From: an uncultured Gammaproteobacteria bacterium | GTDB taxonomy: Bacteria > Pseudomonadota > Gammaproteobacteria > Steroidobacterales > Foliamicaceae | Length of the DNA stretch: 64,000 nucleotides | NCBI GenBank assembly: GCA_951828235.1 | Contig: OX639965.1 | Location: 2,458,129 to 2,522,128 of the forward strand | Direction of reading: 5' to 3' | Part shown: positions 16,289 through 50,546 of the stretch, piece after piece | Numbering within the stretch: position 1 is the first letter of the stretch | Layout of the letters: the number at the start of each line of letters is the position of its first letter | Position numbers and translations under genes: made by a program | The notes under the pieces: generated by a model | What the model was told of the DNA's origin: nothing | Databases searched by the model: none | Seen by the model: the letters and a program-made list of their open reading frames with translations, nothing else

Positions 16289-16311
16289 GGCCTTGTACTC
16301 CGCCGGCGGGC

Positions 16312-29553: not shown

Positions 29554-30180
29554 TCAGCCGAGGTCGAGGTAGTCCCGCAACTGGCTTGCGAGGCTGTCGC
29601 AGGCCTTCTCGCGGGTGCGTGCGATTATGGGAATGGGGATAACCAGGGCCGGTATAACGGACGTGCCGCGCACGGCGGCCTTCATCGCGCCCATGTCACT
29701 GAGTTCGGACATATCCCACACGGACGCGGTGTATTCGGAATTGTTCTGCCACCAGGCCACTCCGAAGCAGCCTGCGCCGCCGGGACCCGCTGCGCAGGAA
29801 AGGCTGCCGCCGCTGCCTTCGCGCAGCGTCTGCCCGCTCAGCCAGACCATGTAGCGCACGCCCTTTCGGCGGATCGCTTCGCCGACCCCCGGCCGCTGCA
29901 TGAACTCGCTCAAATCGGCGCTTTCACGCGGCATCGTGCGCGGCTCCAGCCACGGATAAAGCTCATCGACGAATTCCTGTTCGGCGTAGATATTGGGTCG
30001 TTTCGCCCCGGACCGGATCTTCTTCGAAACGCAGCGAACGAATTCCTCTTCCGTGCGATTCCCCGCCAGGTAGCTGGTCCGGAGCAGGACCAGAGATTCC
30101 GTCTCCTCGTCGGCCGGCGCCACGGTCGGCGCTAACCCGATCGCCAGGCTGAACAAAGCAGCCGGCGCCATCAGTCGCAT
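29554..30180 (-). CDS. hypothetical secreted protein
   Basis: Start MRLMAPAALFSLAIGLAPTVAPA at 30180. The rest of the 485-aa ORF is an Arg-rich artefact. Confidence 0.4.
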   Translation of the reverse strand: MRLMAPAALFSLAIGLAPTVAPADEETESLVLLRTSYLAGNRTEEEFVRCVSKKIRSGAKRPNIYAEQEFVDELYPWLEPRTMPRESADLSEFMQRPGVGEAIRRKGVRYMVWLSGQTLREGSGGSLSCAAGPGGAGCFGVAWWQNNSEYTASVWDMSELSDMGAMKAAVRGTSVIPALVIPIPIIARTREKACDSLASQLRDYLDLG

Positions 30181-30206
30181 CAGGCTCACGGTCTTGTCCT
30201 GCCTGT

Positions 30207-30809
30207 TCACGATCCGCTTTCGACAAGGGCCAGGATAGCAGCGTCCTGGCCAAGTTCCTGCGTCAGCGTCGCTCCCGCGTCGCGCAGCGCGTATTCGGCC
30301 GCCTCGCTCAGGCTCCTCCCAAGCCCCGCGGACCTTTGCGAGCCTTCGCCGTAGCCGGGGATTTTCAGCCGGGTCAGTGGAGCGCCGTCGGCGCTGGTAA
30401 TTCGGATGTCGAATTCCACCCAGGCCGCGGGAATATCCACCTTGGAGCGCCCCGGCACGCCGAACTCGAAGCGCAGGATTTCCGGTTCGATGATCAGGTC
30501 GGGGTTCGATCCGGCGCCGTCCGCCGGCACCAGCGTCAGGCAGGAACTGAGGATGCTGTTGAGCATGCGCATGCTGGGCTGGCCCAGCGCGATGGTCCAG
30601 CGGGTGGTGTCGAGCGCTTCTTCCACGTGCGAGAACCCGCGAAACTCTTCCGCGTATTGCACCTGGGCGGTGAGCGGCAGGCGTTGCGTCATGGGCGCCG
30701 GAAAGTTGGCGCTCAGGTTCACGGTTCCACCGCATCCCGCGATGGCCATGGCGACTGCGCCCAAGGCCATCGCAGGCCGCATTCGAAGCCACGGCAAGCC
30801 TTTTTCCAT
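30207..30809 (-). CDS. hypothetical lipoprotein
   Basis: Lipobox-like sequence AMAIAGCGG after a hydrophobic leader. Start could be 30809 or 30782. Confidence 0.45.
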   Translation of the reverse strand: MEKGLPWLRMRPAMALGAVAMAIAGCGGTVNLSANFPAPMTQRLPLTAQVQYAEEFRGFSHVEEALDTTRWTIALGQPSMRMLNSILSSCLTLVPADGAGSNPDLIIEPEILRFEFGVPGRSKVDIPAAWVEFDIRITSADGAPLTRLKIPGYGEGSQRSAGLGRSLSEAAEYALRDAGATLTQELGQDAAILALVESGS

Positions 30810-30862
30810 CACGGGCTTGAGTATACTCCCGGAACTCTTCAGCCTGCGGTGCCGGAAGCAAC

Positions 30863-31336
30863 ATGAACGTCGAAACCTTTCTCGAAAAAGCCAGGGAGGC
30901 GGGCGTGCCGCCGATGGGCGCCGGGCGCCTGGTGGCACGCCGGCTGGGGTCCACACATGAGATGTGCGACCTGCTGCTTGGCCTGGTGCTCTCGGAGCAG
31001 AAGACCTGCACCTACTCGCTGGTCCAGCTTCTCGAGGAAGAGGGCGGGCTTCTCAAGGCCGGCGACCGTATCGTTTTCCTGGACGCCGACCGGCGCCCGC
31101 GCTGCGTGGTGGAGCTGGATGAATGCGAGCAGCTTCCTTTCAACCGGGTGGAAGCGAGACACACGGCGGGGGAGGGTCCGGCCGCCCGCGACGTGAAAGT
31201 CTGGCGTGAGATTCACGCCGCATACTGGGGCAAGTGGCTCAAGTCCCGCGGCCAGGAATTCCACGAGGAAATTCCCGTCATGTGGCAATCGTTCCGCCTT
31301 CTGTACCCGCGTTCCGAATCTGCTGACGAGGCATGA
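30863..31336 (+). CDS. ASCH domain protein
   Basis: Pattern LLLGLVLSEQKTCTYS...GDRIVFLDADRRPRCVVELDECEQLPFNRVEARHTAGEG...WREIHAAYW. Confidence 0.65.
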   Translation: MNVETFLEKAREAGVPPMGAGRLVARRLGSTHEMCDLLLGLVLSEQKTCTYSLVQLLEEEGGLLKAGDRIVFLDADRRPRCVVELDECEQLPFNRVEARHTAGEGPAARDVKVWREIHAAYWGKWLKSRGQEFHEEIPVMWQSFRLLYPRSESADEA

Positions 31337-32589
31337 ACCCGGACGAAATCCGGTCCGCCGCCGAGGGCTGGCTGGCCCAGCACCCCGCGGCGGCGACTGC
31401 GCTGGTCATTCTGGCCCTGGCGCTGGCGGCGCTGCTGGCCGATTGGCTGGCGCGCCGCGTAATCGCGGCGGCGGTCCGCAGGCGGCTCAAGTCCTCCAGC
31501 GCGGGCCCGTTCGCTACGGCGCTGCTGGAGTCGCGAGTGCTGCTGCGCTTTGCGCAACTGGCGCCGGCACTGGTCCTGTTCTTCGGCGTTCGCGCCGCCG
31601 AACTGCAGCTCGGGCAGTTCTGGACCCGTGTGCTCGGCGTATTCGCGTTTGCCTGGGTGGTGACGGCGCTGATCGCCGGCGGGGTCTCCGTGCTGAAGGC
31701 CGCCGGCCTGTATCTCCAGAACACGCCGGGCAGTCACTCGCGGCTGCCGATCAAGGGCTATGCCCAGGCCGTCTCGCTGGTGCTGTACATTCTTGCCGGC
31801 CTGGTCATCGTGGCTTACGCGGCCGAGGTCTCCGTGTGGCTCCTGCTGAGCAGTCTCGGGGCGCTCACGGCGGTGCTGCTGCTGGTGTTCCGCGACACCC
31901 TGCTCTCTGTTATGGCCAGCATCCAGATTTCCGTCAACGACGTGGTGCGGCTGGGAGACTGGGTGGAAATGCGCTCGCACAACGTGGATGGCGACGTGGT
32001 CGACATCGCGCTGCACACCGTCACCGTGCGCAACTGGGACAAGACCCTGAGCACCATTCCCACGCAGGACTTCATTACCGGATCCTTCAAGAACTGGCGG
32101 GGCATGAGCGAGGGCGGCGCGCGCCGGATCAAGCGGTCGGTGTATATCGACATGGCCACGGTGCGCTTTCTGAACGACGAGGAAATCGAGCGTTTCTCGA
32201 AGTTCAAGCTGCTGGAGAAATATATTCCCGACAGGCACCGCGAACTCAGTGATTACAACACCCGCATAGGCGCCGAGGCATTGGCCGTCAACTTAAGGCG
32301 CCTGACCAATGTGGGCACGTTCAGGGCTTACCTTTACAACTACATAACGAACCATCCCAAGGTGCATCCCGAACGCACCACGCTGGTCCGGCAACTGCAG
32401 TCGGGCCCGGACGGCCTGCCGATCGAGATCTATTGCTTTGCCGCGACCACCGACTGGCAGGCCTACGAGGACCTGCAAGCCGACCTGTTCGACCACATCC
32501 TGGCGGTGGCGCCCGAGTTCGGGCTGAATGTATTTCAGCGCGCTTCGGGACGCGACCTGCGTTTGAGCGGGCGCCCCGTGGTCACGTAG
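31333..32589 (+). CDS. mechanosensitive ion channel (MscS family)
   Basis: N-terminal TM helices, then the MscS beta-domain motif SVNDVVRLGDWVEMRSHNVDGDVVDIALHTVTVRNWDKTLSTIP. Confidence 0.8.
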   Translation: MNPDEIRSAAEGWLAQHPAAATALVILALALAALLADWLARRVIAAAVRRRLKSSSAGPFATALLESRVLLRFAQLAPALVLFFGVRAAELQLGQFWTRVLGVFAFAWVVTALIAGGVSVLKAAGLYLQNTPGSHSRLPIKGYAQAVSLVLYILAGLVIVAYAAEVSVWLLLSSLGALTAVLLLVFRDTLLSVMASIQISVNDVVRLGDWVEMRSHNVDGDVVDIALHTVTVRNWDKTLSTIPTQDFITGSFKNWRGMSEGGARRIKRSVYIDMATVRFLNDEEIERFSKFKLLEKYIPDRHRELSDYNTRIGAEALAVNLRRLTNVGTFRAYLYNYITNHPKVHPERTTLVRQLQSGPDGLPIEIYCFAATTDWQAYEDLQADLFDHILAVAPEFGLNVFQRASGRDLRLSGRPVVT

Positions 32590-32592
32590 GGA

Positions 32593-32613
32593 GGGAAGGC
32601 TTCGCGCCTTCCC
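32593..32613 (+). terminator. hairpin downstream of the MscS-family gene
   Basis: GGGAAGGC-TTCGC-GCCTTCCC. No T-run follows. Confidence 0.35.
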
Positions 32614-32699
32614 CGAGGGCGAGACGCCCTTGTTCCCGGGGGGACGCCCTCCCGCCCGGGCAGGGTTAACATTCGCATATCAGCAATCAGGGGTGGTTC

Positions 32700-33737
32700 A
32701 TGTTCAATTTTTCGATACTCGAAAGCGTCATCAGCCGGCGCGGTCTTATGGGCGGTGCGCTGGGTGGACTTGCCGCGGCGGGCCTAACCGCCTGCGGCGC
32801 GCCGATGGGCGGCCAGGCAGAGTCCGCGGGCGCCGCGGCGCCGGACGCGGGCGGGGGGCTGGATCTCAGCAACCCTGCCGACAACCTCTACGCCTTCGGG
32901 AAGATATGGGGCACCTACGCCGACAAGCCGGTCTACAGCGGTTACCAGGGCGTTCAGTTCGCGCGTATCGGCGTGAACAAGCTGACGCCGCTGTTCGGTT
33001 ACGTGGGCTGCGGGAACATGCAATGCAAGATGGATGAGAACGGACACCTCTGGATTCGGGGAACCGAGGCAGGCTATTTCACCGACCTCGCAAGCGGCGA
33101 GATCATCGACTATTGGGACAACCCGTACAGCGGCGAGCGGGTTGATGCATTTCCCTTCTTCAACTATGGCCTGCGCGGGAGCCTGACCCAGGAAATGCCA
33201 CGCATGTCAATGGGCGGCGCCGCGGACGACAACACGCTTATGAACGCGGCCGACGCCCGCATGAACGAAGAGGGGGTTATCCCGTTTATCCTGCCGTTCC
33301 AGAAGGTTCACGATCAGTACCTGCTCGCCTGGGAATACGCGCACGAGTACACCAACCCGGTTACGCCCGAGGGTTGGCCCAAGGCTTCGACCGGGCCCAA
33401 GATCAATCCTTCGGAACACTTCGTCTTCTATATACCCGCGGCGGAGCTCGAAGATCGAAGCAATCCCTCGGCCCGCTTCCACGCCGGCTTCATGCGCACA
33501 TCGCCCTGGTGGCCGTGGATGCGCATGGGGCAAACGGCGGTGCGCGACGGCGCCCTGTTCGGCCGCATGCACAGCTTCAAGATCTCGGGTGAGCTCGATA
33601 ATATTCCCCGTGTGGTGCTGGAGCGCCTGGAAGGGGACAAACCCGAGTTGCTTGAGCCGCAGACCGGCTGGGAAGCCGGCATCGAACCGCGCGGCACCTG
33701 GGAGCTGTTCTCCGAGGAGGTCCCCCGGGAGGTTTAG
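32700..33737 (+). CDS. hypothetical exported protein (Tat-like motif plus lipobox)
   Basis: Leader SRRGLMGGALGGLAAAGLTACGA. 345 aa with coding-like composition. Confidence 0.5.
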   Translation: MFNFSILESVISRRGLMGGALGGLAAAGLTACGAPMGGQAESAGAAAPDAGGGLDLSNPADNLYAFGKIWGTYADKPVYSGYQGVQFARIGVNKLTPLFGYVGCGNMQCKMDENGHLWIRGTEAGYFTDLASGEIIDYWDNPYSGERVDAFPFFNYGLRGSLTQEMPRMSMGGAADDNTLMNAADARMNEEGVIPFILPFQKVHDQYLLAWEYAHEYTNPVTPEGWPKASTGPKINPSEHFVFYIPAAELEDRSNPSARFHAGFMRTSPWWPWMRMGQTAVRDGALFGRMHSFKISGELDNIPRVVLERLEGDKPELLEPQTGWEAGIEPRGTWELFSEEVPREV

Positions 33738-33746
33738 AGCGCCGGG

Positions 33747-34733
33747 TCAGGCCTTGCCGAATTCGCGAGGGCCGGGCCGGTAGCCCTCCGGATCGGGGTG
33801 TAACAGCAGTTCGCAGCCGGGAAACTCCGCCTTGATGCGGTTCTCCACCTCGTCGAGGATTTCGTGTGCGTCGGCCAGGCTCAAACCGGCGTCCAGCAAT
33901 ACGTGGAACTGCACGATGTAGTTCGAGCCGCCGTGGCGGGTCTTGAGATCGTGAATATCCAGTACCGCAGGATGACTTTCGGCCAGGTAGGCAATCGTTT
34001 CACGGTCCCGATCCGGGATCTCGCGGTCCATGAGGATGTCCAGTGCGTGTTTCGCGATCTTCCAGACGCCGAACAACAGGTATGCAATCACGGCCGCGGC
34101 CACCAGCGGGTCCGCCAGCCAGCCACCGGGCCAGGCCGCCGCTGCAATTGCCGCCGCGACGCCAACGTTGATCGCAAGGTCGGTCTTGTAATGCATGGCG
34201 TCCGCCTCAATTGCGGCGGATCCCGTCTGGCGGCGAACGTAGCGTTGAATTCCGAGCAGCACCAGGGTCATCGCTACCGAAATCCCCATGACCGCAATGC
34301 CGACCGGGGCGTTCTGCACGGCGGCGGGCGCCAGGATACGCTCCACCGACTCCTTGAGCACATACACGGCCGATGCGGCGATAATCAGGGACTGCGCCAG
34401 CGCCGCCAGCCCCTCCGCTTTCCCGTGGCCGAAACGGTGTTCCTTGTCGGCCGGCTTGAGCGATACCGTAACCGCGAAAAACGTGATCAGGGACCCGAGA
34501 ACGTCCAGAGTCGAATCCACCAGCGAACTGAGCAGTGAAACGGAGTCGGTCGCCTGCCATGCCCAGGCCTTGATCCCGACCAGGATTGCGGCGGTGGTCA
34601 CCGAAGCGTACGTGGCCAGCCGCAGCAGCCGGCGGCGTAAACGTCCCGTCACCATCGGGCCGCCGGCGCCCGCAGCGATATGGAACAGGCGCTTCAAGCG
34701 GGTGCGAAGAGGGCGGGGCGCGGATGGGTTCAT
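33747..34733 (-). CDS. cation diffusion facilitator family transporter (FieF-like)
   Basis: Motifs LVDSTLDVLGSL and HRFGHGKAEGLAALAQS. C-terminal cytoplasmic domain. Confidence 0.85.
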   Translation of the reverse strand: MNPSAPRPLRTRLKRLFHIAAGAGGPMVTGRLRRRLLRLATYASVTTAAILVGIKAWAWQATDSVSLLSSLVDSTLDVLGSLITFFAVTVSLKPADKEHRFGHGKAEGLAALAQSLIIAASAVYVLKESVERILAPAAVQNAPVGIAVMGISVAMTLVLLGIQRYVRRQTGSAAIEADAMHYKTDLAINVGVAAAIAAAAWPGGWLADPLVAAAVIAYLLFGVWKIAKHALDILMDREIPDRDRETIAYLAESHPAVLDIHDLKTRHGGSNYIVQFHVLLDAGLSLADAHEILDEVENRIKAEFPGCELLLHPDPEGYRPGPREFGKA

Positions 34734-34805
34734 GGCGGTTGCTTACTGTCGGAACTTGCCGGAATTCTCGTGAGTGTCGGTTGTGTTGGCGGATACTGCA
34801 AAGAG

Positions 34806-34811
34806 TACAAT
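34806..34811 (+). promoter_or_regulatory. possible -10 hexamer for ssrA
   Basis: TACAAT lies 11 nt upstream of the mature 5' end. No convincing -35 hexamer. Confidence 0.3.
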
Positions 34812-34822
34812 AGCCCATCTAC

Positions 34823-35175
34823 GGGGGCGACATGGCTTCGACGTGGGCCGTGAGACCCTTGGTGTGCATGCCGAGGCGCAGGGTACCTCGTAAATCCTCC
34901 TGCAAAACCAATAGTTGCCAACGACGACAACTACGCTCTAGCGGCTTGACCGCTAGCGTCTCTGCCAGGATTGCCTGTGGCTCGGTAGAGGCGTCGCTTG
35001 CACAGGATCGCCCGTAGATCCGATTGGCGCCTGCGGGTTAAGAGTCAGCTGATCACAGCGGTAGTTTATTCCCGCCCGTCGGAGAACTGCCGTTAACGAT
35101 GACGCGGCTAAGCATGTAGAGCGCCTTGGGCAGTAGCGCTTGCGGACGCGGGTTCGATTCCCGCCGCCTCCACCA
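34823..35175 (+). ncRNA. ssrA: tmRNA (transfer-messenger RNA), canonical copy
   Basis: Acceptor stem 5' GGGGGCG pairs with 3' CGCCTCC and includes the G3:U pair. T-arm GCGGG-TTCGATT-CCCGC, with ACCA encoded. Tag ORF 34917-34949 (GCC AAC GAC GAC AAC TAC GCT CTA GCG GCT TGA) encodes ANDDNYALAA. Confidence 0.95.
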
Positions 35176-35337
35176 ACGCCTCTTCCGCGTTCGAATCGGA
35201 ACGCTGCCGGAGGGAACAGCAGAATCCGGAAGGTTTCTTGTCTGTGGAGCCTTAGGTGCTTGTGCTTCGGCAGACCTCATCCGATACTACGCTTGACGTC
35301 TGCAAATCTCATTTGTAGCATCGTGACTGTCTTTGCT

Positions 35338-35380
35338 CCCCGCCCGATACGCCGAGAGGCCTCGGGCGGGGTTATTTTTT
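35338..35380 (+). terminator. Rho-independent terminator
   Basis: CCCCGCCCGA...TCGGGCGGGG stem followed by TTATTTTTT. Confidence 0.7.
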
Positions 35381-35392
35381 GCCACACAACCC

Positions 35393-35478
35393 TTGACGAG
35401 CCCGCCTCCAATCAAACGCGCGGTCGTCTTCGTGGACGGCCAAAACCTCTTCTACGCTGCTCGAAATGCATTTGGGTC
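35393..35478 (+). pseudogene. 5' fragment of a NYN-domain (LabA-like) gene, truncated
   Basis: Frame reads ..IKRAVVFVDGQNLFYAARNAFG, a typical NYN N-terminus. The reading frame ends where repeat A begins. Confidence 0.4.
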
Positions 35479-35576
35479 TAAAGAATGTTTTTCTTTTTGT
35501 TGGGCAAGATAAACATGACCCCGTGAAATCCTGTGGTACCAACGCTTTCCGCTGGAAGTAATAGGGACGCCGCCTC
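35479..35576 (+). repeat. ~98-bp direct repeat, copy A
   Basis: Sequence TAAAGAATGTTTT...GGTACCAACG...GCTGGAAGTAATAGGGACGCCGCCTC. Differs at 11 positions from copy B at 45199-45296. Confidence 0.8.
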
Positions 35577-35680
35577 TCGCCCGGAATTCAGGTTACTGGC
35601 GGAATTGGGGGACAGGGCCCTGCTTGCTGTACGGAGGCGCGTTAAACTAGCGAGCAGGTTCATTAATTTCGGGTCATGGC

Positions 35681-35884
35681 ATGAATCTGACCGTCGTAAT
35701 TCATGAGGCTGCGGAAGGCGGCTACTGGGCGGAAGTCCCGGCAGTTGCGGGCTGCGTAACCCAAGCAGAATCGTTGGAAGAGTTACGCAAGAATATTCAC
35801 GAGGCGATCGAAGGGTGTTTGTCCGTCGAAGTCCAGGACATCCCCCTTTCGGAAACGGACCGGATTATTGAAGTGGTTGTGTGA
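35681..35884 (+). CDS. hicB: HicB-family antitoxin (short form)
   Basis: MNLTVVIHEAAEGGYWAEVPAVAGCVTQAESLEELRKNIHEAIEGCL matches the UPF0150/HicB N-domain pattern. Confidence 0.8.
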   Translation: MNLTVVIHEAAEGGYWAEVPAVAGCVTQAESLEELRKNIHEAIEGCLSVEVQDIPLSETDRIIEVVV

Positions 35885-36087
35885 AAGCCGTCAGCGGAAG
35901 GCGGTTTTGCCGGTTGCTGGAATCTCGGGGTTGGCAATTGAGGCGAATACGCGGCGGTCATTTCATCTATGCAAAAGAGGGCCAAGATGCCCGCATTTCG
36001 GTTCCTGTCCATGGGGCCGCGGCGCTGAAACGCGGCTTACAGGCGCATCTGATGAAAATCGCGGACATTGATGAGAGCGAACTGTAG
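35881..36087 (+). CDS. hicA: HicA-family mRNA interferase toxin
   Basis: Motif LLESRGWQLRRIRGGHFIY...ISVPVHG. GTG start overlaps the hicB stop. Confidence 0.8.
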   Translation: MKAVSGRRFCRLLESRGWQLRRIRGGHFIYAKEGQDARISVPVHGAAALKRGLQAHLMKIADIDESEL

Positions 36088-36165
36088 ATCGTGACCCGCG
36101 GGCAACGCATTTCGATGCAGCGCTGCATTTCGGGCCTGGTTTCGCGCGTGCAAGGCCGTATATGC

Positions 36166-36520
36166 CGGGGCGACATGGCTTCGGCGTGGACCGTGAGACC
36201 CTTGGTGTGCATGCCGAGGCGCAGGGTTCCTCGTAAATCCGCCTGCAAAACCAATAGTTGCCAACGACGACAACTACGCTCTAGCGGCTTGACCGGCTAG
36301 CGTTCCTGCCAGGATGTCCTGTGACCAGGCCGGAGCGTCGCTTGCACAGGATCGCCCGTAGAACCGATCGGCGCCTGCGGGTTAAGAGTTAGCCGATCAC
36401 AGCGGTAGTTCATTCTTGCCGGTCGGAGAACCACTGTCTATCACGACGCGGCTAAGCATGTAGAGCGCCTCGGGCAGTAGCGCTTGCGGACGCGGGTTTG
36501 ATTCCCGCCACCTCCACTCA
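36166..36520 (+). ncRNA. ssrA: second tmRNA-like gene, diverged and possibly defective
   Basis: Aligns end to end with 34823-35175 and has an identical tag ORF. About 36 differences, including C at position 1, a C:A acceptor-stem mismatch, T-loop TTTGATT and ACTCA at the 3' end. Confidence 0.8.
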
Positions 36521-36713
36521 AACACAACATAAAACCTTTATAAAACGGTAGTTTACAAGTTTCCAAACAAATGGTTCCAGTCATAGCGCCACACTGGCGC
36601 GGGAGCGATGCGCTGCTAATTTGGTCTTACTGTTTCTTCTGCGCTACACACGGTGTCGCCAGACCCCGCCAGATCCCAACTTTGGGATCGCCCTGGACAA
36701 ACTCGCACACATG

Positions 36714-36741
36714 TTGACAAGCCCAAGAGCAGGATGATAGT
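36714..36741 (+). promoter_or_regulatory. sigma70-like promoter now separated from its gene by the IS
   Basis: TTGACA, 16-nt spacer, GATAGT. Followed by palindrome TAGCATGCTA (36761-36770) and an AAGGGAGAG RBS that the IS insertion cuts. Confidence 0.4.
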
Positions 36742-36961
36742 TTCAACACGCGTGGTTAGCTAGCATGCTAATCGAAGAACAGAAGGGAGAGTGTCAATGG
36801 CAACCGAAAATGGCACATTTCTGGCAACTGAAAATGGCACACTTTTGAGGCGGGCGATTGGTTGCTGATGTGGCTGTTGTGATCCGGACTGCACCGGCGG
36901 CCTTGCCTGCAGGGAGCGGAGCGACCGAAGGGCAAGGCCGCCGGTGCGGCGAGTCGGTTGA

Positions 36962-37759
36962 TCATGTTCGGGCTCCTTCACTTCGATTCTCGCTGGCGGG
37001 TCGCAGCAGGTCCTGATGAGCCCGCATCCGGTAGCTGTTGCCCCGGATGTTGACGATGTGGCAGTGGTGCAGGACACGGTCGATCAGCGCGGCCGCCATG
37101 ACTTCGTCGCCGAGCACACTGCCCCATTCTTCGAACCCCTTGTTCGAGGTCAGCACGGTGGAGGCGCGTTCGTGACGGGCGTTGATCAGCTGGAAGAACA
37201 GCACGGCGTCGTCCTGGCTGACGGGTAGATAGCCGATCTCGTCGATCACGAGCAGTGCCGGATGGGTCAGCACGCGCAGCCGCCGCGCCAGGTTGCCGGC
37301 GGTTCTGGCCTCGGTGAGTGACTCGATCAGCGCGGCGAGTGTGCCGTAGTAGACGCGGCGGCCGGACTCGGCCGCGGCGATCGCCAGACTGATCGCCAGG
37401 TGCGTCTTCCCAACGCCGGGCGGGCCCAACAGGACGACGTTCTCGGCGCGCTCCAAAAAGCCCAGTTCGTGCAGGGCCTGGATCTGCTCGCGCTTGATGG
37501 AAGGTTGGAAGGCGAAGTCGAACTGCGCCAGCGTCTTGATCGCCGGCAGCCGCGAAGAGCGCATGGCGGTCTGCAGCCGGCGATTGTTGCGCAGCACGAT
37601 CTGGGCGCTGAGCAACTGCTCGATCGCTTCGGTGGCAGTGACCGTTCCGCCATCAGCCTGGGCCAGGATCCCGTCGACGGCCTCCAACGCGCCGGGCATC
37701 TTCAGGTCCGCCAACATGGCCCGGACCCGCTCGCGCCGGCTTCCTTCGACCCGCTTCAT
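36962..37759 (-). CDS. istB: IS21-family helper ATPase IstB
   Basis: Motifs LLGPPGVGKTHLA, LLVIDEIGYLP and TSNKGFEEWG. Confidence 0.9.
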   Translation of the reverse strand: MKRVEGSRRERVRAMLADLKMPGALEAVDGILAQADGGTVTATEAIEQLLSAQIVLRNNRRLQTAMRSSRLPAIKTLAQFDFAFQPSIKREQIQALHELGFLERAENVVLLGPPGVGKTHLAISLAIAAAESGRRVYYGTLAALIESLTEARTAGNLARRLRVLTHPALLVIDEIGYLPVSQDDAVLFFQLINARHERASTVLTSNKGFEEWGSVLGDEVMAAALIDRVLHHCHIVNIRGNSYRMRAHQDLLRPASENRSEGART

Positions 37760-38073
37760 CGCGCCACCTGGGCATAAACCTCAAGGGAGCGGCGCTCCAC
37801 CGGCACCTGCCTCGGCACGCGCCGGGCCGGCGGGGCGTTCAAGCGCGCACCCAGGCGCCGGTACGGCTGCGGGGCCAGGGGTCGCAATGCCGCGCGTTCT
37901 TCGCGCTCGAAGCGGTCCACGGGACGCTCCCCGGTGGTGCCGTGCCGACGCACATTGGCCGTGTCCTTAAGCCAACACAAGGCCTGGTCGTTCAGGTCCG
38001 CATCGCTGACGAATGTGCGGCCATAGAAAAAACTCTGGCGCAGGTAGCGGATCGGTCGCTCCACCTTGCCCTT
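37756..38073 (-). pseudogene. istA: IS21 transposase IstA, C-terminal fragment
   Basis: Begins at ..KGKVERPIRYLRQSFFYGRTF. The upstream part of the gene lies at 41455-42159. Confidence 0.85.
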
Positions 38074-38135
38074 GTTACTGGTCACCAAATGCAAACTCAG
38101 CGCAACGGTCGCGACAGCCAACCGACGTCGTCGAG

Positions 38136-38384
38136 GTGACCCATCCATTCCATCCGTGGTCGGGGCGGGCGTTCCCGCTGCAGCGGTGTGTAACTACCGG
38201 CGGTGTTTCATTGGTGCGCTGCATTGTCGATGAGGCGACGGTTCGCAGCCTGCCGGTTGCCTGGACGGACCGGCGCACGGTGGACGACTTTGAGCGGCTC
38301 TCGGCGGGGCGTTCGCTGTTCCGGCCGGACGATCTTGAGGCGCTTCGGGCGCAGGTTGACGTGCTTCTGGACGATCAGAAATAA
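38136..38384 (+). CDS. small protein with THPFHP motif (DUF5372-like, from memory)
   Basis: VTHPFHPWSGRAFPLQRCVTTGGVSLVRCIVDEATVRSLPVAWTD. Start uncertain; GTG 38136 chosen. Confidence 0.45.
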   Translation: MTHPFHPWSGRAFPLQRCVTTGGVSLVRCIVDEATVRSLPVAWTDRRTVDDFERLSAGRSLFRPDDLEALRAQVDVLLDDQK

Positions 38385-38574
38385 GGGCGCATAATGATCA
38401 ATGTATTTTACGCAGACATGGAATCGGCATCGGGGTTTGGGGACGGTTCTTGCAGCACAGTTCTCGATATTCCAATTGTCTTACTACCCCATGGAGGGAA
38501 ACGGCTGGTTGATACTGTCAATGATGGAGTAATATATTATGATCATTACGGTTCGCTCAATCAGGATCCGCGCC

Positions 38575-39024
38575 ATGCCCGACAAAAAGACCGACCGCCT
38601 GCGCCAATCCGGCACGCTCAATCCGCGCCCGGACACGGTCACCGACCCGCTGTTCCACGACAACGCGTTCTTCGATCCGCGCGACCTGCTGCAGGTCCGC
38701 TACGAGATGGTGCGTTGCACCGTACGGGGCGTTCCCCTCAAGGAGGCGGCGGCCCGGTTCGGCCTTTCGGTACCCACCTGCGTGCGCGCCAACCGGGCCT
38801 TCCGCGAGGGCGGGCTTCAGGGACTCATTCCGCAGCGGCGCGGTCCGCGCGGCGCCCACAAGATCACGCCCGAGATCCTCGCATTCGTCCTCCATTGCCG
38901 GGCCGAACACGGGCCGCTCGGCAGCCGCAGACTCGTGCCCCTGATCGAGGCGCAGTTCGGCGTACGGATCCACCCGCGCAGCCTCGACAAGGCGCTGGCA
39001 AAAAAAACGGCCAGACAACGATGA
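38575..39024 (+). CDS. helix-turn-helix protein (transposase-associated type)
   Basis: MPDKKTDRLRQSG...VPLKEAAARFGLSVPTCVRANRAFREGGLQGLIPQRRGPRGAHKITPE. Confidence 0.55.
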   Translation: MPDKKTDRLRQSGTLNPRPDTVTDPLFHDNAFFDPRDLLQVRYEMVRCTVRGVPLKEAAARFGLSVPTCVRANRAFREGGLQGLIPQRRGPRGAHKITPEILAFVLHCRAEHGPLGSRRLVPLIEAQFGVRIHPRSLDKALAKKTARQR

Positions 39025-39320
39025 CCTCACTGCCGCCGGCGCTGTCGATTGATGTCGATAGCGTGCGCCGCTATGACGGCTGGCGCCGGCAATGGTGCAT
39101 CGGCGGCCGCAGCCAGGCGATCGGCCTGCTGTGCCACCACGGCATGGCCCGTGCGCTGACGCTAACCGCGCCTCCGGATCCACCGGCTGCAGTCCCCACC
39201 TCCGTGGCGTCGTCACGGGATCCGCTACCGGTATCCGAGTGCACCGCCGTGACAGGGGCGGCCGCCCGGATGATCCATGAGCTGCTCGTACATGAAGCGG
39301 GAGAAGGCCGCCATGCTTGA
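39021..39320 (+). CDS. hypothetical small protein
   Basis: ATGA overlap with the upstream gene and ATG..TGA overlap with the recombinase start. No motif recognised. Confidence 0.3.
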   Translation: MTSLPPALSIDVDSVRRYDGWRRQWCIGGRSQAIGLLCHHGMARALTLTAPPDPPAAVPTSVASSRDPLPVSECTAVTGAAARMIHELLVHEAGEGRHA

Positions 39321-41445
39321 GTCCATGTCCTACAAGGTCACCGACGATCACCGTCAGCGCGAAGCCTGTCTGTACATCCGTCAATCCTCCATGCACCAGG
39401 TGCTGGAGAATACCGAGAGCGCGCGCCGCCAGTACGGTCTGCGTCAGCGCGCGATCGCGCTGGGCTGGTCCGATGAGCGTATCCGCACCATCGACGACGA
39501 TCAGGGCAAATCGGGCGCGCACAGCGCCAACCGCAGTGGCTTCCGAGATCTCATGGCCCGTATCGCCGCCGGGGAAATCGGCCTGGTGCTGAGTCTGGAG
39601 GTCTCGCGTTTGTGCCGCAACAACACCGACTGGCACCAACTGTTGCAGATCGCCGCCATCGCCGACACGCTCATCCTCGACGAGGCTGGCGTGTACGATC
39701 CCAACGACGGCAATGACCGTCTGTTGCTCGGGCTGAAGGGGGCGCTGTCGGAGTATGAACTGCAGGGCATCCGCGCCCGCCTGATCGGCGGGCAGCGCAG
39801 CAAGGCGCAGCGGGGCGAACTCAGGATGCGCCTGCCGATCGGCCTGATCTACACCGACACCGGCGAGATCGACTTCGATCCCGACCGTGCCATCGTGGAG
39901 GCCATCGAGCTGGTGTTCACCACGTTCCGCCGCCTCGGTTCGGCGATGCAGACACTGAAATGGTTCCGCAAGAATGCTGTCTCCCTGCCTTCGCGGCCGT
40001 ACCGCATGAATGGACAGGTGCACTGGTCGGTGCCCAATCACAGCCAGATCCAGCGCATGATCCGCAATCCCCGCTACGCCGGCTGCTTCGCCTATGGGCG
40101 TACCCGTACCCGCAGCCATCCCGACGGCACGGTGCGCTATGCCCGCGTCGCCATGGAGTCGTGGCAGGTCTGCATACCCGAAGCCCATGTCGGGTATATC
40201 GACTGGGACGAATATCGCCGCAACCAGGAAACGCTGAAAAGGAACATGGCTGCGTTCACACGGGGACCGGGGCGCCAGCCGGCGCCCCGGGAGGGCCAGG
40301 CGTTGCTTCAGTCTCGGGTGATCTGCGGGCATTGCGGGCATCGGATGAAGGTTCGTTATGTCGCGGCACGCCCGAAACGCAGGGAGTCGGCGCGCTGGTA
40401 TTACTACTGCCAGCACAATGTCGTTCGCCTTGGCGCCCGTACCTGCCAGAGCCTGCACGGGGACAGTATCGACGCGGCGGTATCGGACTTCATTGTGGCG
40501 GCGGTGAATCGCCAGAACATTGCCCTTGCGCTGTCCGTGCGCGAGCAGGTGCGCGCCGAGTGCGCCGCCGTTGACCGACAGCACGCCAACCGGATCGAAG
40601 CGCTACGCCATGAAGCCGACCTGGCGCGACGGCGGTACATGGAAGTGGATCCTGAAAACCGCCTCGTCGCCGCCAACCTCGAGGCCGAATGGAATACTCG
40701 GCTGGGCGCGCTTGAAAAGGCCATCGTAGCGCGGGAACAGCACGGCAAGAGCCGCGATAGCGTGGCTTCCGGCGAACAGGACCAGCGCCTGCTCGAACTG
40801 GCCAACGACTTCGGCACGGTCTGGAATGCGCCGGCAACCGGCAACGCTGATCGTAAACGGTTGCTGGGCCTGCTGCTTGAGGACGTGACGCTAACGCGCC
40901 AAGGCTATCGCGCTCGTATCGGGCTGCGTCTTCGCGGGGGTAAGCCCTGGACGCTGGGGCCCGTCGATCTGCCGAAACCGCGCTCGACGGTTGTGCGCCG
41001 GCATGCCAGCGACGCGGTTCTGGTTGAACTGGAGACCCTGCTGTGCGAAGGGGCTGACGACGCCACGGTGGCCGCGCAACTGAACCGGCGGGGCCATCGG
41101 GACTCCAGAGGGGATATGTTTACGCGCCGCACCGTGTATGGCATCCGGAAACGGCTGGGTTGGCGCAGCGGGCTCGAACGCCGACGGCAGCGATTGCGCG
41201 AGCGCGGATACGTCGACGCCACGGAGCTGGCGACCCAACTCGGTGTTTGCGCGACGACCGTGCGGGCGCGGGCGCGTCGCGGCAACGGAATCGATGCCTG
41301 CCGGTTAACAGTGGGCAAACGATCGTTCACCATGTACAGAATGGACAGCGAGGCCCCCGGCAAAGCGCACAATGCACCGAGACTCAAGCGCCAAAGCGGC
41401 TGCAAGGTCGCCTTGTCACCACGATACGAGCAGGTTGCATCATGA
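39313..41445 (+). CDS. large serine recombinase
   Basis: Resolvase-type catalytic domain ACLYIRQSS...GLVLSLEVSRLCRN. Recombinase domain, zinc ribbon CGHCGHRM...YYYCQH, and a coiled-coil region. Confidence 0.85.
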   Translation: MLESMSYKVTDDHRQREACLYIRQSSMHQVLENTESARRQYGLRQRAIALGWSDERIRTIDDDQGKSGAHSANRSGFRDLMARIAAGEIGLVLSLEVSRLCRNNTDWHQLLQIAAIADTLILDEAGVYDPNDGNDRLLLGLKGALSEYELQGIRARLIGGQRSKAQRGELRMRLPIGLIYTDTGEIDFDPDRAIVEAIELVFTTFRRLGSAMQTLKWFRKNAVSLPSRPYRMNGQVHWSVPNHSQIQRMIRNPRYAGCFAYGRTRTRSHPDGTVRYARVAMESWQVCIPEAHVGYIDWDEYRRNQETLKRNMAAFTRGPGRQPAPREGQALLQSRVICGHCGHRMKVRYVAARPKRRESARWYYYCQHNVVRLGARTCQSLHGDSIDAAVSDFIVAAVNRQNIALALSVREQVRAECAAVDRQHANRIEALRHEADLARRRYMEVDPENRLVAANLEAEWNTRLGALEKAIVAREQHGKSRDSVASGEQDQRLLELANDFGTVWNAPATGNADRKRLLGLLLEDVTLTRQGYRARIGLRLRGGKPWTLGPVDLPKPRSTVVRRHASDAVLVELETLLCEGADDATVAAQLNRRGHRDSRGDMFTRRTVYGIRKRLGWRSGLERRRQRLRERGYVDATELATQLGVCATTVRARARRGNGIDACRLTVGKRSFTMYRMDSEAPGKAHNAPRLKRQSGCKVALSPRYEQVAS

Positions 41446-41454
41446 AACCCAAGA

Positions 41455-42159
41455 CTTGGTCTGAGCGCGATACGGCCGGCACGCACGCGGCGCAAAACCC
41501 CAGTGCGCAGCAAAACGCAGAAACTCCGCGTTCAGCACCAAAGACCGGCCATCGCCGCGACCGTCCGAGAGCACCACTGCACGCATCTGGTCGAACAACA
41601 GCTCCCGCGGAACCCCGCCAAAGTGCCCGAACGCGCTCTCCAATCCTTCGATCAGCACCGCCATCGTCTGCCGACGGTAGAAACGCAACCACAACAGCCT
41701 GGAATACCCCAGCACCACCAACAGCGCGTGACGGCGTCCCCAAGGCAAGGTAAAGGTCGCGAAGTCCACCTGGCCCTGGCGTCCCGCCGGCGTCTCGAAT
41801 CGCACGACCGCTTCCGTTGGCGCCCGCGGACGCACCGTGCGCACGTAATCCCGCACCCGGCTGTAACTGCCCGGATAACCCGCCGCGCGCACCTCATCAA
41901 ACAACCGCTGGGCCGACAACTGCGGATACTGCGTCAATCGATCCCAAATGATCGCCTTGTAGGGATCGAGCTTGTGGGGCACCCGGGCACGAGGAGAATA
42001 CCCACTCGCACCGCTCGACAAGTCCCGGTCCAACTGCCCCGATCCAATCCAACGGTGAATCGTCCGCCGACTCACCCCGAACCGCCTCGACAGCTCCGCC
42101 TTCGAGACACCCTGGTCCAAATAGTGCTTCAACCGCATCCGGGTCTCCCATCTGTGCAT
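41455..42159 (-). pseudogene. istA: IS21 transposase IstA, N-terminal fragment
   Basis: MHRWETRMRLKHYLDQGVSKAELSRRFGVSRRTIHRWI (HTH) followed by the DDE core, which contains the motif QVDFATF. Ends ..CRPYRAQTK at the junction. Confidence 0.85.
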
Positions 42160-42292
42160 CGATATGCCGCTCCCATCCTGTTGACTCCGCCAACAGGATG
42201 GACCACCGCATCCCGCTCGCCAAAACGCCATATGTGCCGTTTTGGCTTGCCAGAAATGGGAAATTTACGCTTGCCAGCTACAGAGAGTAGCA

Positions 42293-42496
42293 ATGGATTC
42301 TTCAAGCGCTCTTTTGACTAGAGTACTCGCCACTTTCGGTATTGACAAAGTCTCCAGCAGGGAGGCGCGTATGCTCCTAGCTGTCTTCGTCGTGATTGCC
42401 ATGGCTTTTCTCGCTATTGCGGCTTATCAAGCTGGTTACCAACACGGTAAGGATTTGGCAGAAAAAGCCAATGCAGAGGATGCATCCTACCGTTGA
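42293..42496 (+). CDS. small single-pass membrane protein
   Basis: MDSSSALL...MLLAVFVVIAMAFLAIAAYQAG. Its RBS AAGGGAGAG is split off by the IS21 insertion. Confidence 0.45.
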   Translation: MDSSSALLTRVLATFGIDKVSSREARMLLAVFVVIAMAFLAIAAYQAGYQHGKDLAEKANAEDASYR

Positions 42497-43139
42497 TTCT
42501 GGAAATTGCGCCTCGAAGCCAATGCCAGATTGGAGAGCAAGAGAGTGCGGACCGTGGGGTTCAATCGCCTGATCCGTTGGGGCCGAAGCTTGTTGTCGTT
42601 GTCGCGTATGTCGAATTCCCCTTCTTGGAACAACCGTAGGATGACCTGATCCATTTGCGAGCGCGTTGCGGCCGTGTCATTGGCGAGTTGATGATGCACG
42701 GCCTCAATCGAGATCGGTTTTTTCGAAACTTAGGCATCGAGCGCTCGCGTAAGCGAAACCAGCATTTGCTGTTGCATCGCCTTCTCATCCATCTGCGTAG
42801 ACTTGAACAGTTCAATCTCATCCGGGTTCTGGATTGCATTGGAACCGAACATTCCAAGATCTCCATTTCCGTAGTGCTCGAACGTGTTTTTCGATTCCCA
42901 GTGACGCTGCAGCATCACGTTGCGAACCGCAGGGTGCTTTGAGAGGTGAACGAACCACAAGGCCTGCCGAGAAACCCGAGGGCGGATGAAAAACGGCGTG
43001 TAGTAGGTGCTTCTGGCGCTTGAAGAATCCGGTCTTTCAAAGCTCGCTGAATGAGTGTCCGGCGAACGATTTGCGTTTGTCTAATGAGATCAAGGGCCCG
43101 CTGTCGGCTGAATCCTAACCTCTCTATGCGGTCTAGCAC
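42487..43139 (-). pseudogene. degraded ORF of unknown family
   Basis: Three protein-like pieces. Pieces 2 and 3 share a frame and are separated by a single TAA (about 42731). Piece 1 is in another frame. Confidence 0.35.
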
Positions 43140-43345
43140 CTCTGGTGTCCAACCTCAGGGGGTCACTCCAAGAAATGGGGAGTATTACTTCAGCAGTGAC
43201 AAGCAGTGACAAGAGAGGATATTTCTAGAGACGATGCACAGTTCTGTATACGTTTTGTCATTGACTTTGCCTTGCAACTGAGAAGAACTGCGGCGGTGTG
43301 AACACGCGGAAGCAGTGCGAGAGATGATGGCGCCCGGCAGTATTC

Positions 43346-43723
43346 CTATTCCGGCTCCGGCTCCGGCTCGGTAGGGGCTGGGCTATCCTCTTGTGAAGAC
43401 GGCGGGATTTCCGCACAGCCTCGCATACACCGCTCGAAATCCAACCGGCAGCGTTCCTCTTCCGCCCTGGACGGCACCTGGCGCGTTGTTGTCGTTGTAG
43501 TTGTTTGTTGCGGCGGGTAGCGCCGTGGGTTATACGGCCCCTGCTGCACTGAAGTATCAGTAACAGTATCGTATGCCCACGATAGGCAGTCGATATAGGT
43601 ATCTTCGCAAGCTTCCTCGCAGGTTTTCGGTTCCTCTTCAAAGAATGCGCCTACACCTGCGCATCCGGTCGCAATCAGGCACGCAAGCAGGGATATTGCC
43701 GCTTTGACTTGCTTCGTTGTCAT
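43346..43723 (-). CDS. Cys-rich lipoprotein, orphan
   Basis: Leader MTTKQVKAAISLLACLIATGC (lipobox). Seven further Cys, a T7 run, and an acidic PEPEPE tail. Confidence 0.5.
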   Translation of the reverse strand: MTTKQVKAAISLLACLIATGCAGVGAFFEEEPKTCEEACEDTYIDCLSWAYDTVTDTSVQQGPYNPRRYPPQQTTTTTTTRQVPSRAEEERCRLDFERCMRGCAEIPPSSQEDSPAPTEPEPEPE

Positions 43724-43772
43724 GGTGGGATTGTAGACCTGTCCACGCAAAGGAAATGTCCATGCTGGAGTC

Positions 43773-45023
43773 TTATTGGTCGGTATTCTTTAGGTCCTTG
43801 GGCAATTGATACCAAGAGCCTTTCTTCTGGCGCACTTGATGCTGAAGAGTTGTAGCATCAGGCGCTTGAACATCAAAGTCAATTTCGTCGTGGCTTATGG
43901 GCTGAGCTCGCTTAAGTTTCTCTAGTTTCGCTAGTAATTCCGATTCCGACATTTGGTTGGCTTTCTTTTTGGGGCGCGCTCTTGCTCGCCATGCCGGAAC
44001 GTGCCGATCGTATACTTTCGATACGAAGTAATCACCTTCAGTAGGCGGTTGAGCAGCAAAACTACTTATTCCTTTAGCCTTGACGTCGCTGGGCAATTCC
44101 TCGTAATGCTCATTAAGTTCTCGCAGACCACGTTTCAGGTCAGGTCCCCAAACAAACTCTTGGTCTGGCCGCAGAAACAGCGGGGCACACCGCTGGTGGA
44201 GGCGATCCGAAGACGCAAAAATTCGGCAAAACGGAAGATAGAACAAGTAGGCAATATCTACTCGATTGGAAGCACGTTCAGCGGAAATGAGGCCCGATTG
44301 CACAGCAAATTGAAAAAACAGTTCAACCTCAACCACGTGCGCGCAATACGGAGCAAATGAAGCAATCGGCCTGTAGCTGAGGGTGGACCATCTTGTAAGG
44401 ATGCTGTAGTGATATTGTTGATCTATTCCTAGGATTACCAATGCGAGTTGCGTCCTATCGGATCTTTGTTGGTCTGAAATAACAAAGTCTCCCGCCATTC
44501 TCCTCGCTTCATCGAGGTTCTTACACTTAGTTTCGCTCAATCCGAGTTTTTGGAACGAATTCGCAATACCTTCAAGATCAACGTTGTTTAGAGCTGTGCG
44601 CCAGCGGGCTGCGTACTCTCGCTCAAGATCCTGAAACTTCTTTTCGCGCCACCTGGAAAACGCTTCGCTTTCTGGAAACTCATCAAATGCCATCACGGAT
44701 TTGGGGCCGCTTTTCGCCGGTGTTCCGCCACTAACCATAATTTGGCCGGTTTGTCGAACGGTACCGCCCATCAATTCGTTTAGGCATAGTGCCTTGTGGT
44801 AAGCGTTGGGTATACCTTCCTTGTCTGGGAACTTATCTGCAATTATCCTCACTTCCTCTTCCGGATCGCGGGAACCCGTTTGTTTCTCTAAATCTGCAAG
44901 AGTCTCAACGAAAAAATATGGGCAAACATTAGGGTCAAAGAAGTGATCAAACCAGACCGATTCATCAACGCTAAGCGACTGAAGGAATGACTTGTCGAAT
45001 AGTGTTATCAGACTCATGGTCAA
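43773..45023 (-). CDS. 416-aa orphan protein, possibly a split PIN-like nuclease
   Basis: AT-richer ORF. Motifs LITLFDKSFLQSL, FFVETLADL and NRVDIAYLFYLPFCRIFASSDRLH place acidic residues in a PIN-like order. Confidence 0.5.
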   Translation of the reverse strand: MTMSLITLFDKSFLQSLSVDESVWFDHFFDPNVCPYFFVETLADLEKQTGSRDPEEEVRIIADKFPDKEGIPNAYHKALCLNELMGGTVRQTGQIMVSGGTPAKSGPKSVMAFDEFPESEAFSRWREKKFQDLEREYAARWRTALNNVDLEGIANSFQKLGLSETKCKNLDEARRMAGDFVISDQQRSDRTQLALVILGIDQQYHYSILTRWSTLSYRPIASFAPYCAHVVEVELFFQFAVQSGLISAERASNRVDIAYLFYLPFCRIFASSDRLHQRCAPLFLRPDQEFVWGPDLKRGLRELNEHYEELPSDVKAKGISSFAAQPPTEGDYFVSKVYDRHVPAWRARARPKKKANQMSESELLAKLEKLKRAQPISHDEIDFDVQAPDATTLQHQVRQKKGSWYQLPKDLKNTDQ

Positions 45024-45198
45024 TTGGTATTTCCAAGCTTAGTACGGAATCTTGATTGTGGACACGGCCCACAGATTGCTTGGAGACGCCACTAATGCGG
45101 CGGGGAGTGTATCATCTTGTGTAGCCGGGTGAAACAAACTAGTTTTTGGCGGAATCCGTCCCAAGCCCAGCAATACCAAGCGCTCGCGCAGCCGCCTA

Positions 45199-45296
45199 TA
45201 AAGAATGTTTTACGTTTTGTTGGACAAAGAAAACATAACCCCGTGAAAGCCTTTGGTACCAACGATTTTCGCTGGAAGTAATAGGGACGCCGCCTC
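45199..45296 (+). repeat. ~98-bp direct repeat, copy B
   Basis: Matches 35479-35576 at 87 of 98 positions by hand alignment. Confidence 0.8.
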
Positions 45297-45301
45297 CACC
45301 A
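45288..45301 (+). repeat. 14-nt copy of the ssrA 3' end (attR-like)
   Basis: CGCCGCCTCCACCA is identical to 35162-35175. Confidence 0.6.
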
Positions 45302-45311
45302 AACGCTCCCA

Positions 45312-45515
45312 ATGGGGCCGGGCGAGCCGCTGCGCCTGACCATGGAAGTATCGGTATTGCGGGACCGCATCGACACCCATGAGTCCCTCGCCGAAAAGCA
45401 CGGGGGCTACTCTTTGGCGGACGTGGAGTCCTATCAGCCCACTCCCGAGGAGGAAAAACGCCGCGCGGCACGGCGAAGGACCCTGGTTGCCCGTATTGTC
45501 AGAGACCTGACATAA
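45312..45515 (+). CDS. hypothetical small protein
   Basis: 67-aa ORF (MEVSVLRDRIDTHESLAEKHGG...). Coding status uncertain. Confidence 0.3.
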   Translation: MGPGEPLRLTMEVSVLRDRIDTHESLAEKHGGYSLADVESYQPTPEEEKRRAARRRTLVARIVRDLT

Positions 45516-45571
45516 TTCCCGCAAGCCTGCTTCCAGGCAGGTACGGGACAGGAAAAGTCAGGGGAAGCCAA

Positions 45572-46645: not shown

Positions 46646-46785
46646 TCCGGGCGAACGTCTCCAAAGGGTCAATGATCTTGTTGCGGCTGACCGAATGACA
46701 CTCTCCGTGTCGGACGGCTGATAATCTTCGCCCCGGGGCGCGGTCCATGATCCGCGCCTGACGTACCGTTTGGTGGGAGGTTCCG

Positions 46786-50392: not shown

Positions 50393-50546
50393 TCGAGGTG
50401 CCCGCGCTCTTCCATAGACGCACCGATCGGCAACCGCGGACACGCACCCGGGCTCAACGGGCCGGACGCGCTTGCCGCCATCGATCGGTTTCTGGCTTCG
50501 GTTACCTGAGCCGTTACCATTGGCGTTTTTTCGACCGGTGACAACC

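Follow-up and report, generated by a model that had tools for sequence, protein, structure and literature searches.

Why should a bacterial genome hold two full-length genes for transfer-messenger RNA (tmRNA, encoded by ssrA) in close succession? The question is raised by a 64,000-nucleotide stretch from an uncultured gammaproteobacterium (GenBank assembly GCA_951828235.1, contig OX639965.1, positions 2,458,129 to 2,522,128), hereafter the window, in which copy 1 and copy 2 of ssrA lie on the same (+) strand with 990 bases between them and their starts about 1.3 kb apart. Sequence comparison leads us to propose, with a probability of about 0.72, that copy 2 derives from the ssrA of another species in the same uncultured gammaproteobacterial clade, was horizontally acquired and is now present as a pseudogene in an array of island DNA behind the resident gene.

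Resident gene and inserted copy

A search with Rfam family RF00023 (gathering score 47 bits), run alongside ARAGORN, recovers both genes end to end over model positions 1-374, at 218 bits for copy 1 and 160.6 bits for copy 2 (Table 1), which bears out the initial annotation of two full-length tmRNA genes. Copy 1 joins a score above the gathering threshold to a tRNA-like domain, a resume codon and a tag frame, and ARAGORN calls it with the tag ANDDNYALAA*, in keeping with its earlier description as a proper tmRNA gene. Copy 2 belongs to the family by sequence homology, as a full-length match above the gathering score, and ARAGORN leaves it uncalled. For comparison, species-representative genomes were scanned once with the tag-coding block, which returned 61 loci, mostly from uncultured and often sponge-associated Gammaproteobacteria; loci and genomes compared are cited by L numbers. 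The working tmRNA gene of the cell is copy 1. Its identity to the one ssrA of the sister genome L036 is 98.9%, and to that of L013 96.6%, and it groups with its own species group, to the exclusion of copy 2, in 100% of neighbour-joining bootstrap replicates. Its upstream neighbour is a divergently oriented cation-efflux (CDF) gene. The leader GTACAATAGCCnATCTAC directly precedes the ssrA +1 position in the closest relatives, whatever stands further upstream, and variants of it are seen in the more distant members of the clade.

How copy 2 relates to the resident locus is seen by comparison with L036 (OY762933.1), which matches the window over 29930-35176 at 94.5% identity and over 45288-48056 at 96.4%. 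Between these matching flanks L036 has one ssrA and one core, and the 3' end of its ssrA is joined straight to the sequence that begins at window position 45288. This empty site marks window 35177-45287 as a 10.1-kb insertion at the ssrA 3' end, with copy 2 inside it, and an exact 15-nt direct repeat bounds the insertion. The flanks thus agree with the Islander definition of an island, having an intact gene on the left, a repeat of its 3' end in the same orientation on the right and an empty site in a sister genome; the tyrosine integrase of that definition is lacking, with no tyrosine recombinase domain found by Pfam, NCBIfam or PHROGs in any open reading frame (ORF) of 35177-45287, where IS21 IstA/IstB and a large serine recombinase are the only enzymes of this sort. 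No close relative sampled has a second ssrA copy near its ssrA.

The 10.1 kb are a mosaic rather than a single clean element, and the ssrA 3' end is a busy hotspot of integration and deletion. From the same species group, five metagenome contigs (L062-L066) hold one ssrA each in the recovered stretch, with different DNA after each, and the same is true of further contexts that reach ssrA (L067-L070). The segment S1, which follows copy 1, runs on into an intact 231-aa ORF in L062, L065 and L066, of which the window keeps only a truncated 5' part. The window diverges at 35478, exactly where the repeat R1 starts, and L063 and L064 diverge at 35293. R1 is 98 nt long, and its partner R2 reaches directly into the right attachment (att) core CGCCGCCTCCACCAAAC, which consists of the ssrA 3' acceptor strand and CCA. 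Both repeats hold an internal inverted repeat, ATGTTTT...AAAACAT, and have ssrA-core sequence right after them. They look like attP arms, and R1 may be the remnant of the attR of a related element.

Origin and decay of copy 2

The two copies differ in 38 alignment columns (89.3% identity); an earlier hand count had given about 36. Their tag reading frames are the same, as had been noted, and the segment 5' of the tag, previously called identical, has five differences (positions 1, 19, 25, 63 and 76), at two of which (63 and 76) copy 1 is the odd one out against the clade. The suggestion that the tag template had been specially conserved does not hold, since the tag region is invariant across the whole subclade and its identity in copy 2 adds no signal.

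Copy 2 is about 90% identical to the ssrA of L036 and L013 and 93-95% identical to those of L042, L035, L021 and L023, the nearest being L042 (93.8-94.6%), followed by L035 and L021. Twenty-one near-fixed sites are diagnostic between the group of copy 1 and the L042/L021 group; copy 2 shows the other group's state at 16 of them, that of copy 1's group at three and neither at two. The kind of change is also informative. Mapped on the Rfam structure, half of the 38 differences (19) fall at unpaired positions, two pairs (138:168 and 139:167, in the region of the PK2 helix GUCUC/GAGGC against GUUCC/GGAGC) have changed on both sides with pairing kept, and six more are preserved through wobble changes. 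Six pairs are broken in copy 2, two of which are equally non-canonical in intact relatives; three are non-canonical in both copies, and none is broken in copy 1 alone. Since copy 2 carries the other lineage's states, compensatory pairs included, it would have evolved as a functional gene elsewhere, and as most of the divergence preserves structure, it arose under selection in a genome where that gene worked. Of the two origins first considered for copy 2, arrival of a foreign ssrA with the island is favoured by its place inside the insertion, the states it shares with another species group and its absence near the ssrA of relatives; the decay of an old duplicate is not supported, given those same states and the lack of this DNA in the sister genome.

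Copy 2 is probably dead as a tmRNA gene. At 160.6 bits it has the lowest RF00023 score in the clade by 35-60 bits, against 195-220 bits for 16 intact clade genes, and it bears nine private changes at columns otherwise invariant in 16 other clade genes, where close relatives bear 0-2. The lesions listed in the initial annotation are all present: C at position 1, the C.A mismatch at acceptor pair 6, the T-loop TTTGATT in place of TTCGATT, and ACTCA replacing ACCA. In the 7-bp acceptor stem, pairs 1:349 (C.C) and 6:344 (C.A) are broken uniquely in copy 2, as is the helix-2 pair 25:317, and the C-to-U change in the T-loop falls at a column invariant in the 16 other aligned genes; the G3:U pair is retained. 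Copy 2 thus lacks both an intact acceptor stem and the conserved T-loop, and its RNA can very probably not be charged. That no CCA is encoded does not by itself mark a defect, as the sole ssrA found in L012, L013 and L053 is also without it. In those three genes the acceptor stem is followed by ATTG, ATCA and ACAG, respectively; presumably CCA is added to these RNAs, unless the last bases of ssrA were replaced by an island. A toy fold of the truncated tRNA-like domains, an artificial construct for which neither z-score is significant, forms the acceptor stem in copy 1 and not in copy 2. The low score, the private changes, the negative ARAGORN result and a dead -10 box all agree with the earlier view of copy 2 as defective, and private change of only about 2.5% indicates that its inactivation is recent.

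Does the homology of the two copies end with the mature RNA, as had been stated? Their flanks find no match in each other by alignment, so that the description of the surroundings as unrelated stands, but the repeated unit is not exactly the mature RNA. With the register fixed, the 18 nt before copy 2 share 10 of 17 positions with the -10/leader consensus of the clade (P ~0.0016 against a background of all 18-mers of the window), and the sequence looks like a homologous but ruined promoter, its -10 box reading TGCAAG against TACAAT in the clade, with both critical -10 positions changed. A consensus scan sees no promoter upstream of copy 2; the same scan also misses that of copy 1. At the other end copy 2 enters a degenerate att core, CGCCaCCTCCACtCAAAC, which differs from the 17-nt right core by one substitution and one inserted T, includes the AAC past CCA and is followed by AT-rich island DNA. 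The homology is thus probably not strictly confined to the mature RNA. A retro-copy of the mature RNA, considered in view of the start of homology at +2, was rejected on both counts, the vestigial -10 box and leader and the entry of the 3' end into the att core with AAC past CCA.

What could be the route by which a whole gene entered? Ordinary integration at tRNA and tmRNA genes (tDNA integration) displaces only a 3' fragment of its target (PMC4383910), and a whole second gene therefore needs another route. The likeliest vehicle would be an integrating element, or a circle after excision, on which hicBA travelled with a complete ssrA that adjoined an att core. Recombining core by core with the resident gene, it would leave the order resident ssrA, hicBA, foreign ssrA, core and native flank. 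The window has copy 1 on the native upstream flank, copy 2 with its core followed by island DNA, and the right core followed by native flank, as a core-to-core route predicts. The core behind copy 2 would have served as the site of another element, island B with R2 at its end, or have held that element already; R1 with its partial core would be the mark of yet another related element, and the redundant foreign ssrA would then have decayed.

Several observations weigh against this reading or its details. With no recognisable tyrosine integrase, the site-specific steps are deduced from the repeats alone, and beyond CCA the 3' junction of copy 2 shares just AAC, 3 nt, with the right core. The loci compared include no donor in which hicBA stands upstream of ssrA, and among the fetched loci and viral contigs there was no relative of S1, R1/R2 or the hicA-to-copy 2 junction associated with ssrA. 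BLAST of S1, R1, R2, the hicA-to-copy 2 spacer and pieces of island B against all fetched loci returned hicBA only, and the R1/R2 motif had no match in viral contigs. The placement of copy 2 within the other species group is split, 27% of bootstrap replicates joining it to the group labelled B and 23% to that labelled A, and the states that it shares with the other group may be ancestral, which leaves room for an old paralogue. Finally, no terminator-like site was found between hicA and copy 2, and read-through transcription is thus possible.

The ssrA sites of the clade and rival explanations

In the clade ssrA occupies two sites, either beside the CDF gene or between MFS and hydrolase genes, the latter belonging to a Rieske/hydantoinase/SDR catabolic cluster. 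A single contig, JAPOWV010000038.1 (L020 and L035), has a promoter-bearing ssrA at both; about 19 kb separate the two genes, which show 98.4% identity over the 250 nt available. Apart from the window's own contig, only one contig among the genomes matched has two matches to the tag pattern. In the window the MFS-hydrolase spacer (50393-50545) is 153 nt long, as compared with 15 nt in L076-L079. Over its first ~45 nt it matches the lead-in to ssrA at that site in L021, L035 and L047, and for the other ~100 nt no homologue was found. Read from these matches, the spacer may be the scar of a lost ssrA module. Two further observations concern the DNA behind ssrA in other genomes. L019 has a 29-nt tag-like fragment, AATAGTTGCCAACGATGACAACTACGCT, at 5969-5997, 3.4 kb downstream of its intact ssrA, which may be a remnant of another decayed tmRNA copy, and L026 has a 98-nt tRNA-like Rfam match of 40.8 bits (2230-2327) about 530 nt downstream of ssrA.

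The neighbourhood on the 3' side is also shared in part. The hicBA genes immediately follow ssrA in L009, L021, L035 and L068, and L042 has hicB only. In several clade species (L009, L021/L072, L035, L042, L068) these genes start 1 nt plus GTTAAACT past the ssrA CCA. The window's own hicBA region (35641-36087) lies between the two ssrA copies, and its genes are 77-79% identical in nucleotides to the hicBA directly after ssrA in L009, L021, L035 and L042. HicA of Escherichia coli is reported to cleave tmRNA (PMC11594946). The linkage of ssrA and hicBA may be no more than hotspot cargo, though it is conserved across species.

A speculative extension, to which we lend little credence, is that ssrA in this clade, often with hicBA, acts as a movable cassette, by means of a circle or element that carries the whole gene and recombines with the resident one. 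Whether it took place at the 3' core or through homology over the length of the gene, recombination would give tandem or flanking full-length ssrA genes; loss of either copy would let the essential gene change neighbours (CDF site or MFS/hydrolase site) and might swap alleles between species. The window would then be a snapshot taken right after such an event.

Could copy 2 instead be an old paralogue, the lineage's own second-site ssrA moved beside copy 1, for example as an excised ssrA-hicBA circle? The contig with a promoter-bearing ssrA at both sites would supply a precedent, and the distribution of the second site is suggestive: ssrA stands between MFS and the gene labelled Y in L021, L035 and L047 and upstream of Y, after the hydrolase gene, in L042, MFS and Y are only 15 nt apart in L076-L079, about 45 nt of the window's MFS-Y spacer are common to the lead-in of ssrA at that site, and hicBA directly follows ssrA in those relatives. 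Yet L036 and L013, the two complete genomes sampled from the group of copy 1, have one tag match each genome-wide, the other 100 nt of the spacer are without a homologue, and the site occupied does not track ssrA phylogeny, the gene of L009 at the CDF site (site 1) being 99.2% identical to that of L047 at the MFS/hydrolase site (site 2). A redundant copy older than the split of the species groups should, moreover, show far more than nine private changes, and we consider this origin unlikely. An in-place tandem duplicate of the resident gene, since decayed, would account for the shared orientation, the distance of 1.3 kb and the fact that copy 2 is the degraded one. It does not account for the 16 of 21 diagnostic sites that are in the state of the other group, for compensatory and wobble-preserving changes, which speak of divergence under selection, for the lack of such a copy in any close relative sampled, or for the position of copy 2 within DNA that L036 is without; of all the explanations weighed here it appears the least credible.

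Function is a separate matter, since copy 2 might be transcribed along with hicBA and yield a working second tmRNA, or a tmRNA-like decoy by which SmpB or HicA is titrated. Its tag frame, resume region, G3:U pair and most helices are intact, the stretch from hicA to copy 2 has no terminator-like site, a phage molecule consisting of the tRNA-like domain (TLD) only is reported to inhibit tmRNA (PMC4131195), and E. coli HicA, as mentioned, is reported to cleave tmRNA (PMC11594946). We judge it improbable nonetheless, in view of changes at positions invariant in the 16 other clade genes (two of the seven acceptor pairs, the T-loop C, helix 2), the altered -10 box, the clade's lowest Rfam score, the negative ARAGORN result and, as weak evidence from an artificial construct, the toy fold; no relative conserves the arrangement. 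That the tandem is an assembly artefact, joining the ssrA alleles of two organisms in a metagenome, is a thought prompted by relatives that are mostly metagenome-assembled genomes. A chimeric join at a shared gene would, however, yield one hybrid copy and not two split by 990 unique bases, the private defects of copy 2 occur in no sampled genome, and the outer junctions match independent genomes (copy 1-S1 in L062-L066, core-flank in L036), all of which makes an artefact very improbable. The reading that we prefer remains a foreign ssrA acquired with island DNA.

Island contents and known systems

Between S1 and copy 2, Pfam matches all above cutoff (PF21748 and PF15919 for one gene, PF07927 for the other) identify a HicAB type II toxin-antitoxin pair. 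Island B, which follows copy 2, includes an IS21 element whose istA is interrupted by an insert of about 3.3 kb, carrying a 308-aa orphan ORF and a large serine recombinase; AT-rich orphan ORFs lie beyond the element, towards R2. The G+C fraction is 0.51-0.59 in the island DNA and 0.51 over 42232-45198, with dips to 0.48, against 0.64 in the host flank. The 416-aa orphan ORF near R2 was considered as a hidden integrase and set aside, having no match in Pfam, NCBIfam, PHROGs, PADLOC or PDB sequences. For the CDF and Rieske proteins encoded in the window's flanks, a search for identical proteins gave no record. Elsewhere in the window, 14821-17467 holds a tandem repeat of about 1484 bp; identity between the copies is 82-84%, and they are probably paralogous genes.

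Table 1. Features at the two ssrA copies and in the insertion (window coordinates)
Feature	Position	Strand	Basis or remark
Conserved -10 box and leader of resident ssrA, GTACAATAGCCCATCTAC	34805-34822	+	Just before +1 in closest clade members
Copy 1, resident intact ssrA, tag ANDDNYALAA	34823-35175	+	ARAGORN; RF00023 218 bits; 98.9% to L036 ssrA
Left att core direct repeat, CGCCGCCTCCACCAA	35162-35176	+	3' end of copy 1; exact repeat of 45288-45302
S1, flank after ssrA common to conspecific strains	35177-35478	+	~94% identical in L062, L065, L066
R1, island-end repeat ending in partial att core CGCCGCCTC (35568-35576)	35479-35576	+	98-nt direct repeat, 89% to R2
hicB antitoxin	35681-35884	+	Pfam UPF0150 and HicB_lk_antitox (PF21748, PF15919), both above cutoff
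hicA toxin	35881-36087	+	Pfam HicA_toxin (PF07927), 47.9 bits
Apparent vestigial, inactivated promoter and leader of copy 2, GTGCAAGGCCGTATATGC	36148-36165	+	10/17 consensus matches, fixed register
Copy 2, full-length ssrA, probable pseudogene of proposed foreign origin	36166-36519	+	RF00023 160.6 bits; no ARAGORN call; private changes
Degenerate att core at 3' end of copy 2, CGCCaCCTCCACtCAAAC	36506-36523	+	Against right core: one substitution, one inserted T
Island B, decayed integrated element	36524-45287		Absent from L036; annotated by Pfam, NCBIfam, PHROGs
IS21 istB	36962-37759	-	
IS21 istA, split	37756-38148 and 41440-42231	-	
Large serine recombinase, 722 aa	39277-41445	+	
Orphan ORF, 416 aa, AT-rich island end near R2	43773-45023	-	
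R2, island-end repeat adjoining right att core	45199-45296	+	89% identical to R1
Right att core, CGCCGCCTCCACCAAAC, then native downstream flank	45288-45304	+	45288-48056 matches L036, there abutting ssrA

For annotation, the locus is one where Rfam alone reports two tmRNA genes and ARAGORN reports one; copy 2 is best marked as a pseudogene, and 35177-45287 as island DNA. Programs that recognise ssrA islands by an intact gene together with a 3' fragment can be misled when the array contains a whole foreign ssrA. More generally, an entire allele of a core RNA gene can enter a genome by way of an integration hotspot. Should the pattern seen in the clade, with two sites and one genome that has both, prove true, ssrA could be replaced or relocated through such intermediates, a possibility of some interest for how essential RNA genes evolve.

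How does the locus compare with what is on record? Islands at the ssrA 3' end, including tandem arrays, are the subject of the Islander/TIGER concept (Williams 2003, in the form in which PMC4383910 cites it). As in those islands, the insertion is bounded by a direct repeat of the gene's last bases, the site is empty in one sister genome and occupied in the other, and the content is a strain-specific mosaic of toxin-antitoxin, insertion sequence and recombinase genes with an internal att-like remnant. Unlike them, with their full gene and displaced 3' fragment, the array holds a full-length gene that appears to come from another lineage, with a promoter of its own, and is now probably dead, and no tyrosine integrase is left in the insertion. 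Second ssrA alleles and tmRNA pseudogenes have also been recorded (Hudson, Lau and Williams 2014, PMC4131195), and copy 2 resembles them as a second tmRNA in a genome that fails quality criteria for the tRNA-like domain; it differs from the pseudogenes described there as 'missing one gene end' in being full length, lightly decayed, in tandem with the resident gene and seemingly of another lineage. Phage-borne tmRNAs, known from the mycobacteriophage Bxz1 group, Bacillus phage G and, as a TLD only, DS6A (PMC4131195), are likewise cases in which mobile DNA bears a tmRNA gene or tmRNA-like fragment. The window's island has no phage genes, however, nothing suggests that copy 2 works for the element, and copy 2 closely resembles the cellular ssrA of sister species. 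Set beside these systems, the case is an uncommon variant of a known event and indicates no new system or molecular mechanism.

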